A DNA stretch of 64,000 bases from Gammaproteobacteria bacterium (GTDB lineage Bacteria; Pseudomonadota; Gammaproteobacteria; JAJFKG01). The notes beneath the pieces are model-generated. The model made no database searches, had not been told where the DNA came from, and saw only the letters and a program-made list of their open reading frames with translations. The position numbers and the translations under genes are program-made. Every line of letters begins with the position of its first letter. Position 1 is the first letter of the stretch. Positions 53,480 to 64,000 of this stretch are shown piece by piece. The stretch spans positions 2,122,503 to 2,186,502 of the forward strand of contig OZ220716.1 in the NCBI GenBank assembly GCA_965116795.1, given 5' to 3'.

Positions 53480-56400
53480 TTACCCTTGAAGGCCTAATCC
53501 TGACCCAATAACCCCTTGTTTTTGTCCAGCATCAGCCAGATTCTTCTCCTTTGTTTTTTCTAATTCCTCGCTAGTTTCTTCTGACGCTAATGGTGATGCA
53601 AATCCGGATTCCTCTTTCTCTTTATGAAAAATTCCACTAAGTTGAGCCACTGATACTTTTGTAGCACTGTCCTTAGAACTAGCCTGCATATCCTTATTTA
53701 ATTGTTTGATACACCTTTCCATCCACAAAGTATGTGGGTGCTGCTCATAGCCAGAACAACTTTTTATCATGCGATGTGCACGCTCCATTTTACTCAAACC
53801 CAATTCAATTTGTCCTAATGCTTTATATGCCATTGCTAAATGGCCGAGTGTTAGTGCTACTGATGGATGCTCTTGCCCATAGTGCGACTCTTTTATCGCT
53901 AGGGCGCGTTCTAACAACGTCTTCTGCGTTTGTGTATCGCCTAAGGCACCCAAGGCGTTGGCAAGACTTCCCAGGGTAATCACCACTTGCCAGTGGTCTT
54001 TGCCATAATGCTCCTCTTTTATCGCTAAGGCGCGTTCTAACAACGTCTTCTTCGTTTGTGCATCACCCAAGGCGTTGGCTAGATTGACCAAGGTACTCGC
54101 CACTTGCCAGTGGTCTTTGCCGTAATGTTCCTCTTGTATCGCTAAGGCGCGTTCTAACAACGTCTTCTTCGTTTGTGCATAGCCTAAGGCACCAAAGGTA
54201 TTGGCAAGATTGACCAGGGTAATCGCCACTTGCCAGTGGTCTTTGCCGTAATGTTCCTCTTGTATCGCTAAGGCGCGTTCTAACAACGTCTTCTTCGTTT
54301 GTGCATAGCCTAAGGCACCAAAAGCGCAAGCCAGATTTCCCAGGGTAATCGCCACTTGCCAGTGGTCTTTGCCGTAATGCTCCTCTTGTATCGCTAAGGC
54401 GCGTTCTAACAACGTCTTCTGCGTTTGTGCATCGCCCAAGGCACCCACGGCGTTGGCAAGACTTCCCAGGGTGATCGCCACTTGCCAGTGGTCTTTGCCG
54501 TAATGTTCCTCTTGTATCACTAAGGCGCGTTCTAACAACGTCTTCTTCGTTTGTGCATCGCCTAAGGCACCAAAGGCATTGGCAAGACCTCCCAGGGTGA
54601 TTGCCACTTGCCAGTGGTCTTTGCCGTAATGTTCCTCTTGTATCGCTAAGGCACGTTCTAACAATGATTTCCGCGTTTGTGCATTACCTAAGGCACCAAA
54701 GGCGCAAGCCAGATTGACCAGGGTGCTTGCCACTTGCCAGTGGTCTTTGCCGTAATATTTCTCTTCAATCGCTAAGGCGCGTTCTAACAACGTCTTCTGC
54801 GTTTGTGCATCGCCTAAGTCACCAAAGGCGCAAGCCAGATTGACCAAGGTAATCGCCGCTTGCCAGTGGTCTTTGCCGTAATGTTTCTCTTCAATCGCTA
54901 AGGCGCGTTCTAACAACATCTTCTGCATTTGTGCATCGCCTAAGTCACCAAAGGCACAAGCCAGATTGACCAGGGTGCTTGCCACTTGCCAGTGGTCTTT
55001 GCCATAATGTTCCTCTTTTATCGCCAAGGCACGTTCTAACAACGTCTTCTGCGTTTGTGCATCACCTAAGGCACTAAAGGCGTTGGCAAGACCTCCCAGA
55101 GTAATCGCCACTTGCCAGCGGTCTTTGCCGTAATGGGACTCATCTATCGCTAAGGCGCGTTCTAACAACGTCTTCTTCGTTTGCGCATCGCCTAAGGCAC
55201 CAAAGGCGTTGGCCAGATTGACCAGGGTACTCGCCACTTGCCAGTGGTCTTTGCCGTAATGTTCCTCTTTTATCGCCAAGGCACGTTCTAACAACGTCTT
55301 CTTCGTTTGTGCATCGCCTAAGGCACCAAAGGCGTTGGCCAGATTGACCAGGGTACTCGCCACTTGCCAGTGGTCTTGACCATAGTGCGCCTCGTCTATT
55401 CTAAGCGCGCGCTCCCAGCGCGCACCGGCTCGAATAACATCACCCATCGTGTAGTACTCATCGCCCAATTCAGAATATAAATTTGCTGCCCACAGTTGTA
55501 ACACATCTTTATTGATTTTCACCTCAGATGTTTGCTCTTTATCTATCGCACTTTCAAGCTCATCAAATACGTCACTGACTTCCTGTAAATGCACCGTTAA
55601 ATCCGTGCGTCGCTTAACTTCCTGCATACTTGGATTGCGTTCTTCAGAATGAGTGAGCATGCTGGTTGTGACTTCAAACCACCTTAGACCACGCTCCACT
55701 CCGCTCAGATGTTCGAATCGGGCTTGCATCAATACCTTCAGTATCCGATGCAAGCTCACTATCTGCTTTTTTGCATCGACTGCCAGCAATGAATATTTGT
55801 TTAACTCAAATAGAGCTTCATCAAATACTTCATTATATTTTACTGCCTCCTGTTCTTTAGCTTCCTCAACACCAACTTTCATACTCTCTTTGATTATATC
55901 AATCGGAATAGGCTCGCTGGCTAACAAACCACAGTGATACAATGTCTTTAAACTCTCAGGCGGTAATTCCTTAAAGTTCATATCAAATGTTATATGGACT
56001 GATTCATGCGTATCTAATAGAGTCTCTTGCCGTAACGTATCATCCTTTAAACGTTCTTCTTTATTATGAAGATAAAGTGATAGGTATTCAGCAATTGGTG
56101 TTTTATAATGCCCCAACTTTACCTTGATATAAGCACCTGCCTGTGCCAGTGCCAATGGCAAATGCCCGAGTTCTTCGATTAAGTTGGTTAATGCTGGCTC
56201 TTCTGCTTCACACCCACTTTGTCGTATTATCAATTCTCTGGCTTCTTCATCGGTAAATAAAGGTACCTCAATTACTTTTGCATCTACCCAGGTTGCCTTG
56301 CGAGAGGTTATCAATATATGCCCTCCCTTCGACGGGATATACTTTTTGACAGATGTGGCTTCAGTCACGTTGTCATATACCAACAACCAGCCATGATTCT

Positions 56401-62518: not shown

Positions 62519-64000
62519 ACAGAGATAGGTGCCCCTTCTACCTGCTGACCAGCTTCTTGGGCTTGTGGCAAATCTTCTTTTAACTCCTCAATATTCTTTT
62601 TTAACTTGCCTACTTCCTCTGGAGATAATCGTCTCCCTCGGAACTGATTAAGCCACGTCAACTCAGTTTTTCTTTCAGACTGACTATCTTCATCTCCATA
62701 AACTTGACAAATAAGCCGTTCTGCCTCATTGACCAATTGCTTATGCTCTTTCGTTGGTGGCCTAATACGACTCTGAGTGGTGGCACTAGGAAACGAAGAT
62801 GAAGAACAGTGGCTAGGTGACTGTTGTCGCGATGAAGAGGTATCTTCTCGCTTCTTCTCAGCCTGTCTTGATTGTCGTCTTTGAACATCAGCACTACTGC
62901 TACTCGTTGATGCACTAGACATAGATGGCTCTGTTGCAGCTCTTGCTCCTCCTGTAAAATCCATGCTTCGTTTCACCAGAACAATGTTTTTCATATTGAC
63001 ATTTTTCAATCGCGCTCCTGACGGCGCAAAGGTTGCACGTACTTTTTTTGGCTCGATAGTATTAATAAAATCAGCATCCAATTCGCGCTGTTCTTTCGAT
63101 ACATTAGGTAGGAATTTCTTACTTTGGTCAATCAGCACCACATCCTCAATTTCGCCGCCTTCTACAACAGCGTTCTCTTCTAAAAATGTGGCATACACCG
63201 ATTTCTCTACTTTCTCCGATTCACTCTCAAGAGCACGCTCTAACTGCTCTAGACGTACCAACATGTCGTCTAAGTCAACAAAAAAGTGGCTCAATGATAA
63301 TTGTAATGTCTGCGCTGTCGCCATCAACAAGATATCTTCACAACGACCCATCACCCAAATCCCATTCTCTTGTAGTGGTGCCACTATCCAGCGTTTAGCA
63401 ATGATGTGTTGTATACATCCATCTAAGCGCGCTGCCAAACTCGCATTTTCAGCAAATTGCAATTCCTTATGCCGAATCGCACTCATCAAGGTCTCAGCTA
63501 ATTTTTTACCAGCCGATGTCGCCGCTTGTGCATCTAACCCCTCTGCCCAACTCGGCTCAAAGCAGAATAATAAACAATCTGTCAATGCCTGGGCAAAAAA
63601 CACAAAATGCATCGGATTAGAGGTCATATCTGCTGTACGTTGGTAACCTTTCTTGCGTGATTTTCCAAAAAAATAGTCAGCCACATCATTCGTCGCTTTT
63701 TGGATTGTCCCCATCGGCGCTAATACACCACCGGCATCGCATAAAATACTCACACCATACGATAATGCTTTTTGACGCTTTGGCGCAGATAATTGAAATT
63801 TTCCTGATGTCACTGCTTCGGCCACAGTACCTGCCGCGCAGACAGTAGATAAGAATGCATCGCAATATTCTCGATAAGGGGATTGTATAAGCAATTTTAG
63901 ACGTTGTTGATAGTCAGCTAAAGATATATCACGAGGTTGAGGTAATACAGAAGCATTAGCGGCGGGATACATCGAAGGTAATTCACCTACTTCTTGTTCC
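62506..64000 (-). CDS. Effector 2, paralogue of effector 1 (5' end outside window)
   Basis: Frame stays open upstream of ATG 63972 (EQEVGELPS-M); shares helical domain, two ATF motifs and terminal helical module. Confidence 0.8.
   Translation of the reverse strand, partial: EQEVGELPSMYPAANASVLPQPRDISLADYQQRLKLLIQSPYREYCDAFLSTVCAAGTVAEAVTSGKFQLSAPKRQKALSYGVSILCDAGGVLAPMGTIQKATNDVADYFFGKSRKKGYQRTADMTSNPMHFVFFAQALTDCLLFCFEPSWAEGLDAQAATSAGKKLAETLMSAIRHKELQFAENASLAARLDGCIQHIIAKRWIVAPLQENGIWVMGRCEDILLMATAQTLQLSLSHFFVDLDDMLVRLEQLERALESESEKVEKSVYATFLEENAVVEGGEIEDVVLIDQSKKFLPNVSKEQRELDADFINTIEPKKVRATFAPSGARLKNVNMKNIVLVKRSMDFTGGARAATEPSMSSASTSSSSADVQRRQSRQAEKKREDTSSSRQQSPSHCSSSSFPSATTQSRIRPPTKEHKQLVNEAERLICQVYGDEDSQSERKTELTWLNQFRGRRLSPEEVGKLKKNIEELKEDLPQAQEAGQQVEGAPISVNPT

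Follow-up and report, generated by a model that had tools for sequence, protein, structure and literature searches.

Signalling by NOD-like receptor (NLR) proteins requires many effector molecules for each sensor, for which animals use separate adaptors and fungi use separate, amyloid-linked genes. The closest described systems are the HET-S/NWD2 and Bell/BASS pairs (10.1101/2020.01.06.895854), in which, according to the accessible part of that report, an effector gene lies next to an NB-ARC-TPR gene, and a beta-prone motif of about 25 amino acids (aa) has two copies in the effector and a single one at the N-terminus of the NLR. Such pairs are known in 'all-in-one' form too, fused in frame, and effector-NLR amyloid pairs are given there as rare or absent in Proteobacteria; the word 'frameshift' is absent from the main text. 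Bab/Agp (BASS11) of E. coli is likewise an amyloid-coupled pair, found in a unicellular host and in prophage cargo hotspots, but its sensor is a TPR-GreA/B-PIN and not an NB-ARC protein, its effector carries a 109-aa Bell-related domain, and no recoding is mentioned in the accessible sections (10.1101/2024.11.07.622273). At the −1 frameshift sites of dnaX and IS3-type elements, as far as the available text of PMC4066793 and PMC5009743 goes, a heptamer X_XXZ_ZZN with a hairpin 4-10 nucleotides (nt) downstream gives a short and a long product. We analysed a stretch of 64,000 nt (hereafter the window) from a gammaproteobacterial genome (GenBank assembly GCA_965116795.1, contig OZ220716.1, positions 2,122,503 to 2,186,502 of the forward strand), which contains two putative effector-NLR modules of the HET-S/NWD2 and Bell/BASS layout. 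Unlike in those pairs, the two genes of each module overlap through a predicted frameshift cassette, consisting of a slippery heptamer, a spacer with a stop codon, and a hairpin.

All four open reading frames (ORFs) lie on the minus strand (coordinates are window positions unless prefixed G000, which denotes the source genome). The first module comprises A1, a putative effector of 618 aa (62506-64362, its start lying 362 nt outside the window), and the NLR N1 (59603-62479), which is in the −1 frame relative to A1 and stays open upstream past the heptamer. The second comprises A2, an A1 paralogue of 696 aa counted from the ATG (56983-59073), and N2 (53480-56971), in the −1 frame relative to A2. 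NB-ARC, DUF7779 and TPR_10/12 were all found above Pfam cut-offs in N1 and N2, and both have an intact Walker A (GLGGIGKT) and Walker B (WLLVYDN) followed by repeats, as expected of NB-ARC-TPR members of the STAND (signal transduction ATPases with numerous domains) class. The unit of an unrecognised ORF and an NB-ARC-TPR gene, which a preliminary description made from the letters alone had proposed to occur twice, was thus confirmed as A1-N1 and A2-N2. The TPR region of N2 (53800-55400) is composed of about 13 near-identical 42-aa units that vary at few fixed positions, and resembles in this the fast-diversifying sensors of fungal NLRs.

From N- to C-terminus, A1 consists of a small alpha/beta domain, a helical domain, a coiled coil, two beta-motifs, a Ser-rich linker and a three-helix part. 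It could be aligned with A2 along the whole length. Identity peaked in the motif region at 69%, and was 46% in the N-terminal domain, 40% in the C-terminal part and 36% over 154 aligned residues of the helical domain, which is common to both modules as had been claimed; N1 and N2 share 52% in NB-ARC and 46% in the TPR region. Neither A1 nor A2 gave a meaningful match in Pfam, PADLOC or NCBIfam. The suggested check of novelty against PADLOC-DB 2.0 system models returned no match for A1, A2 or N1, and for N2 only matches over short stretches of the TPR region.

We then inspected the two junctions. At junction 1, where A1 ends in A_AAC_CCC ACG TAG, the heptamer A_AAC_CCC (62512..62518) is in phase with A1, the TAG stop falls within the spacer (62506-62511), and a hairpin (62474..62505) begins 6 nt past the heptamer. 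At junction 2, where A2 ends in A_AAA_AAG TAA TTA, the heptamer A_AAA_AAG (56986..56992) is in phase with A2 and the hairpin (56945..56979) again begins 6 nt past it; all these elements are on the minus strand. The hairpins have an identical 8-bp outer stem and an inner stem with compensatory changes, with predicted energies of −25.3 and −20.2 kcal/mol (z-scores −5.6 and −5.1; none of 200 shuffles as good), and at both junctions the −1 frame is open from the heptamer into the NLR. When 1831 ORF ends of the genome were surveyed, 27 carried a heptamer and six of these had an open −1 frame, and only junctions 1 and 2 added a hairpin of ≤−15 kcal/mol within 40 nt. As a candidate Shine-Dalgarno-like stimulator, both window junctions have GGGG at 13-16 nt upstream, while the loci from outside this genome described below share no such run; Rfam had no match across the 15-kb locus. 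The RNA signal noted at both junctions in the preliminary description was confirmed. As at dnaX/IS3-type sites, an in-phase X_XXZ_ZZN, a hairpin 6 nt downstream, a 0-frame stop, an open −1 frame and recurrence in other lineages are all present, and we consider it very likely that ribosomes shift −1 at these junctions.

The two junctions were used to derive a search pattern that allowed a spacer of 5-7 nt and left frame, stop and gene content unconstrained. It matched at least 114 metagenome stretches and nine viral ones. The nine viral matches, and three more, showed no ORF-stop-frame pattern and look like chance. Among the matches listed, a stop in the spacer accompanied A_AAC_CCN in all of 11 cases at 6 nt, none of seven at 5 nt and one of eight at 7 nt; the corresponding counts for A_AAA_AAN were 0/5 at 6 nt, 2/10 at 5 nt and 0/5 at 7 nt, and for other heptamers 6/98 in total. 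This gave at least 11 cassette loci from about eight lineage groups with 50-66% GC, of which L052, L061 and L101 are kin, as are L079 and L081. Pfam analysis of ten upstream ORFs (L081 was omitted, its upstream part being identical to that of L079) identified TIR_2 in four, PNP_UDP_1 in two and Metallophos in one, the other three being 102-aa fragments without a match. Nine downstream frames gave NB-ARC in two and AAA_16 in two (under cut-off), and by eye those of L052 and L126 start like the STAND genes. In the protein cluster of the L097 TIR protein, one member is named from a Thermoanaerobaculia bacterium and four of five members end in NPR.

Features that the pattern had left free were also shared. 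Junction 1 and 11 of 11 loci listed have T or C as the last heptamer base. According to the available part of PMC4066793, reporters in E. coli shift with C_CC.U and with C_CC.C but hardly at all with C_CC.A or C_CC.G, and A_AAC_CCA is below threshold, so the pyrimidine found here agrees with the ranking of C_CC.Y over C_CC.R. Among the matches listed, the 3' arm of the hairpin carried a G in 11/11 loci compared with 39/112 other matches, and the closing pair was G-C in 9/11 compared with 11/112; one inner stem pair was G-C in six cases, U-A in three, U-G in one and unpaired in two. The helical domain was found in none of the at least 123 cassette-pattern loci listed. The exact pattern did not turn up in any of 400 further genomes from the same phylum, nor a covariance model match in any of 150 genomes with 28 candidates scored per genome; all whole-genome searches in this work are samples, whose zero counts do not demonstrate absence. 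The predicted RNA cassette is not tied to the helical effector and is far more widespread than it.

A third cassette (L160; G000:C1:2264160-2269348, minus strand) was found in the same genome. It joins a 684-aa helical ORF, unrelated to the A family, to an ORF with pentapeptide and WD40 regions that we label NACHT-like because of its Walker motifs; Pfam did not call NACHT in it. The junction at G000:2267303 reads C_CCA_AAG TAA GTT GCTCATC, with the stop within the 6-nt spacer, then the GCTCATC hairpin, and with a −1 frame leading into the NACHT-like WD40 ORF. Three differing heptamers, A_AAC_CCC, A_AAA_AAG and C_CCA_AAG, therefore each stand 6 nt from a common hairpin start. A heptamer followed by 6 nt and GCTCAYC occurred eight times in the genome, three times with a long ORF, a stop and a long −1 ORF, whereas the same pattern with spacers of 3-5 and 7-9 nt gave 12 matches and none with that gene arrangement. 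Three of the five STAND-like ORFs detected by motif in this genome stand behind a cassette. The WD40 tail of the third downstream ORF is split by an element resembling an insertion sequence (IS). An all-in-one NLR with no cassette, an in-frame Lipase_3-NB-ARC-TPR protein of 1876 aa, is encoded at G000:C1:2220906-2226536 (plus strand; L154).

Mutational or assembly breaks in once-fused genes, as in pseudogenes or through homopolymer errors, could in principle leave junctions of this kind. Both window sites lie within short homopolymer runs, an in-frame fusion is known among relatives (P0021, below), and the 2.45-Mb genome contains many IS and prophage remnants. Contigs from sequencing runs X2 and X4, however, cross both window junctions with zero mismatches or gaps, and contigs from X1-X3 cross the third without a gap; X1-X4 belong to one study that possibly includes the source sample. 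Junction 2 was crossed in the same way by contigs from X5 and X6, whose identical sequence at low depth is possible carry-over and was not taken to represent independent strains. X4 contigs have ends that we take to be Illumina adapters, which makes a homopolymer error from long reads unlikely. Moreover, the flanking ORFs are intact at 600-1170 codons, the same break and hairpin recur in about eight unrelated lineages among the matches listed, and close relatives of two of the TIR proteins terminate at the same residue. Breaks are thus largely refuted as an explanation and very hard to credit. Transcriptional slippage was rejected because homopolymer runs reach six A at most, below the threshold for it.

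A second alternative accepts the junctions as functional and explains them by translational coupling with no fusion. Terminating ribosomes would open the hairpin and expose a GTG in its 3' arm, leaving a plain two-gene amyloid-signalling pair. Separate initiation of the NLR is possible in this way because an in-frame GTG sits in the 3' arm of each hairpin, at both window junctions in the NLR frame, and among the matches listed the 3' arm is CGGTGAGC in 11 of 11 outside loci. N1 and N2 also have their own motif copy, which would be superfluous in a fusion. Coupling leaves unexplained why three types of in-phase heptamer stand at one fixed spacing, why the last base is a pyrimidine, and why in every case the −1 frame stays open between heptamer and GTG. 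In addition, the alignment shows no Shine-Dalgarno-like run ahead of the GTG, and the third junction of the genome has a different 3' arm. We therefore regard coupling as improbable, and frameshifting as the better account of the junctions.

Between the effector and NLR parts the link would be a 27-aa motif beginning x-x-A-T-F, present in two copies in each A ORF and one near each NLR start. On the minus strand, the copies lie at 63118..63198 and 62962..63042 in A1, at 62324..62404 in N1, at 57502..57582 and 57346..57426 in A2, and at 56807..56887 in N2. A profile built from the four A copies was scored on 764,355 27-aa windows of the genome. The N2 and N1 copies ranked 5th and 6th (scores 38 and 30; next 23.5), directly after the four A copies, in support of the previously claimed 2+1 distribution; the motif pair does not form the C-terminus of A1 and A2, as about 120-150 aa lie beyond it, which also sets these proteins apart from HET-S/NWD2 and Bell/BASS. 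Two beta-repeats are visible in many A relatives as well. According to the accessible text, the repeats of HRAM/BASS motifs are joined through a loop that is flexible, Gly/Pro-rich and 6-15 aa long, whereas a predicted helix of about 25 aa lies between the two copies in the effector, and unlike Bell/HeLo effectors A1 and A2 have no recognised Bell/HeLo domain. We do not assign the modules to HET-S/NWD2, Bell/BASS or Bab/Agp, because the linker differs and the likeness is one of layout.

A second motif was found in connection with the third cassette. At G000:C1:2329716-2337240 (minus strand) a 1562-aa NACHT-like ORF, 83% identical to the third-cassette sensor, is followed by a downstream 706-aa ORF. 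A G/N-rich 38-aa motif lies N-terminally in the 1562-aa ORF and C-terminally in both the 706-aa ORF and the third-cassette upstream ORF, and these copies were the top three of 732,323 genome windows. The motif is unrelated to the 27-aa beta-motif, and the gene order here is sensor then effector. The predicted frameshifted third-cassette sensor has no G/N-rich copy of its own and would therefore gain one only through fusion. We consider the G/N-rich motif a candidate second signalling motif.

The helical domain of A1 (residues ~150-385; 63208..63915, minus strand) belongs to a family of about 22 clusters without a recognised family or fold. A search of 1.84 billion representative proteins returned 24 matches, 22 of them with E < 1e-10. 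In most members, which are about 400 aa long, a coiled coil and two beta-repeats accompany the helical domain. In P0021, one in-frame ORF combines helical domain, repeats, a P-loop (GLGGVGKT), DUF7779 and TPRs, and in P0020 the helical domain is fused to WD40, NACHT and kinase. C-termini of the KK or NP(x) type, as in the window ORFs, were found in 7/19 outside A relatives compared with 15/1162 genome ORFs and 1/118 NLR matches. The count excludes six near-duplicates, two fusions, a spurious match and two incomplete members (one truncated, one fragmentary), and the p-value of the enrichment is inflated by kinship among the relatives. These ends give protein-level support, because the DNA around the outside A-family proteins was not found when contigs (genome, metagenome and viral), plasmids and phages were scanned. 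Homologues that are mostly unlinked or plain in-frame single genes, which the preliminary description had named as evidence against its proposal, were not what we found where we looked at the protein level: seven of 19 relatives have KK or NP(x) ends, and P0021 is an in-frame fusion.

Further searches for the family gave little. A1 was found in none of 60 relative genomes (a sample), the family profile gave one weak match (E 6e-4) among 399 other scored genomes of the class, with one further genome unscored, and a word-index search with the profile found two proteins. The ESM Atlas had no usable match for A1 or P0013. A first AlphaFold model based on two sequences was poor, with a predicted local distance difference test (pLDDT) score of 42, and a second based on 31 sequences reached 64, with the core of the helical domain (residues ~150-385) at 83-95 plus a coiled coil. 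A membrane-spanning helix was not evident in the helical domain of 13 proteins, where the best 19-aa hydropathy was 1.1-1.9. An OTU-like stretch accompanies the helical domain in P0011 (Pfam, weak) and in P0006 (by similarity to P0011), and several family members may belong to paralogue clusters.

We also examined the surroundings of the modules. The intergenic stretch at 59074..59602 (minus strand) contains the 3' remnant of a DUF6362 phage gene and a conserved leader, and is repeated upstream of A1. Both A genes thus follow a 400-nt DUF6362-end and leader that recurs at more than ten prophage sites with different cargo each time, including WD40, Sel1-SH3, Smr-Sel1, Ras-Sel1, U-box, OTU and ankyrin proteins, much of it eukaryote-like; MLKL_N-kinase-Sel1 genes lie near several of the slots. 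The putative modules are cargo of a variable slot in many related prophages. The preliminary description had overlooked this, as it had the breadth of the cassette; its linked effector-NLR modules, 2+1 motif and −1 frameshift-type signal are supported, and the host has a Dot/Icm cluster. Immediately upstream of A1 and just outside the window (G000:C1:2187374-2189654, minus strand), DUF2924, a serine recombinase and a small ORF mark an integrative element. Elsewhere in the window (44083-45831) is a set of transposase genes that we take to be IS66-like from the gene layout, with several copies in the genome.

The genome encodes a Dot/Icm type IVB cluster (G000:C1:374000-388000; L006, L007), with IcmK, IcmJ, IcmL and DotM over cut-off. 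Its IcmE/DotG is short, 426 aa compared with a model of 1008 positions, and DotA was not detected with PF11388, a profile that was silent in controls too. The 'Legionellales-like' label proposed earlier applies only loosely, to a bacterium that has type IVB secretion and is probably host-associated, since the comparison collection lists one congener, one other family member and no other family at order level. The E-block is a C-terminal Dot/Icm translocation signal, and the last 50 aa of N1 and N2 contain 11 and 9 Glu (top 0.3% and 1.8% of ORFs). These observations bear on a third alternative, in which the frameshift is real and its products, a short and a long isoform, are Dot/Icm substrates acting in a eukaryotic host cell. 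Such a role is kept open by the Dot/Icm cluster and by the eukaryote-like cargo of the same slot, with MLKL_N-kinase genes nearby, and it would also fit the Glu-rich tails and the OTU-like stretches in two A relatives. Against it, the same cassette stands between TIR, PNP or metallophosphoesterase genes and STAND genes in bacteria of high GC content, of which one is named Thermoanaerobaculia; effectors of these classes occur typically in NLR systems of bacteria, and prophage slots hold defence genes too. We judge the host-directed role unlikely, if less so than coupling.

On balance we favour, with fair but limited confidence, a reading in which each module is one reading unit that would yield mostly free effector and a minority of effector-NLR fusion, with recruitment through the motif. 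Most ribosomes would stop in the spacer and release free effector, and some would slip back by one base and produce the fusion. Oligomerization of NB-ARC on ligand binding is established for STAND proteins. When a ligand is sensed, the NB-ARC of the fusion would oligomerize and cluster its motifs, and the clustered motifs would template free effector into a polymer in which the helical domains could then act. By analogy with HET-S/NWD2 and Bell/BASS, the beta-motifs would probably stack homotypically. We put at about even odds that the helical domain causes cell death or arrest and that a phage is the trigger. Genes, frames, heptamers, spacing, stops, hairpins, motif copies and the recurrence of the cassette behind unrelated effector domains are observed, while −1 shifting, amyloid assembly, toxicity and trigger are inferred. 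The strongest E. coli motifs include A_AAA_AAG and C_CCA_AAG, and A_AAA_AAG is far above A_AAC_CCC, in the available part of PMC4066793; the product ratio would therefore differ between the modules.

Several observations weigh against this reading. The A and N copies of the beta-motif are only 22-41% identical, the A1 copies were modelled as matching three-strand units at low confidence (pLDDT 38-48) with a helix between them, and that helix of about 25 aa is not a flexible loop of the HRAM/BASS type. No stop was present in the spacer of the five A_AAA_AAN matches at 6 nt among the matches listed, the downstream frames of L033 and L104 had no Pfam match, and the −1 frame ends after 72 codons in L133 and 77 in L081. 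Covariation of the stem is only suggestive of pairing, since the whole-stem score was equalled in 28 of 500 shuffles and the outer eight pairs were selected by the search pattern itself. The hairpin of the third junction is weak (z −1.7), and 12 of the 19 outside A relatives have no KK or NP(x) end. The helical domain has no sequence match in Pfam or the PDB, and Foldseek with VIA-align on the pLDDT-64 model gave no clear fold match (best Z 4.3), from which a new fold does not follow. To these are added the in-frame GTG in the 3' hairpin arms, and the eukaryote-like slot cargo together with Dot/Icm.

Compared with dnaX and IS3-type sites, the cassette differs in that its hairpin sequence is conserved across unrelated genes and lineages, its commonest heptamer is the weak A_AAC_CCY, and it is predicted to give an immune-type effector as well as the fusion of that effector to a sensor. 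The effector-STAND-repeat layout of that predicted product is the one known from bNACHT and Avs (10.1101/2022.07.19.500537, 10.64898/2026.01.04.697583), which are described as single polypeptides; mentions of frameshifts in the accessible parts of those reports concern phage genes. We found no report of programmed frameshifting in effector-NLR genes in the literature, although cases could exist in subscription journals or in the cluster tables supplementing PMC3711429, and the available text of PMC3711429, PMC5009743, PMC8195603 and two NLR preprints does not mention it. The cassette is likely an undescribed route to free effector and fusion from one mRNA.

What the locus adds is a sequence-conserved hairpin cassette with interchangeable heptamers, a new effector family and two candidate signalling motifs. 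We propose, tentatively and with somewhat less than even confidence, that a portable recoding element, with its sequence conserved across bacterial phyla, forms a third NLR architecture intermediate between 'all-in-one' and 'two-gene', whose product ratio is tuned by the heptamer, and that here a new beta-solenoid motif lets the fusion seed prion-like polymerisation of a helical death domain that is itself new. The helical domain would then be a new effector-domain family with a natural in-frame NLR fusion. If the proposal is true, frameshifting at a junction of 50 nt would be a one-gene solution that gives both free effector and effector-sensor fusion, and would represent a new cellular, non-transposon class of −1 frameshifting. 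Many 'standalone' TIR, PNP and phosphoesterase genes and 'headless' NB-ARC genes would be mis-annotated halves of recoded genes, and cloning one half alone would miss their activity.

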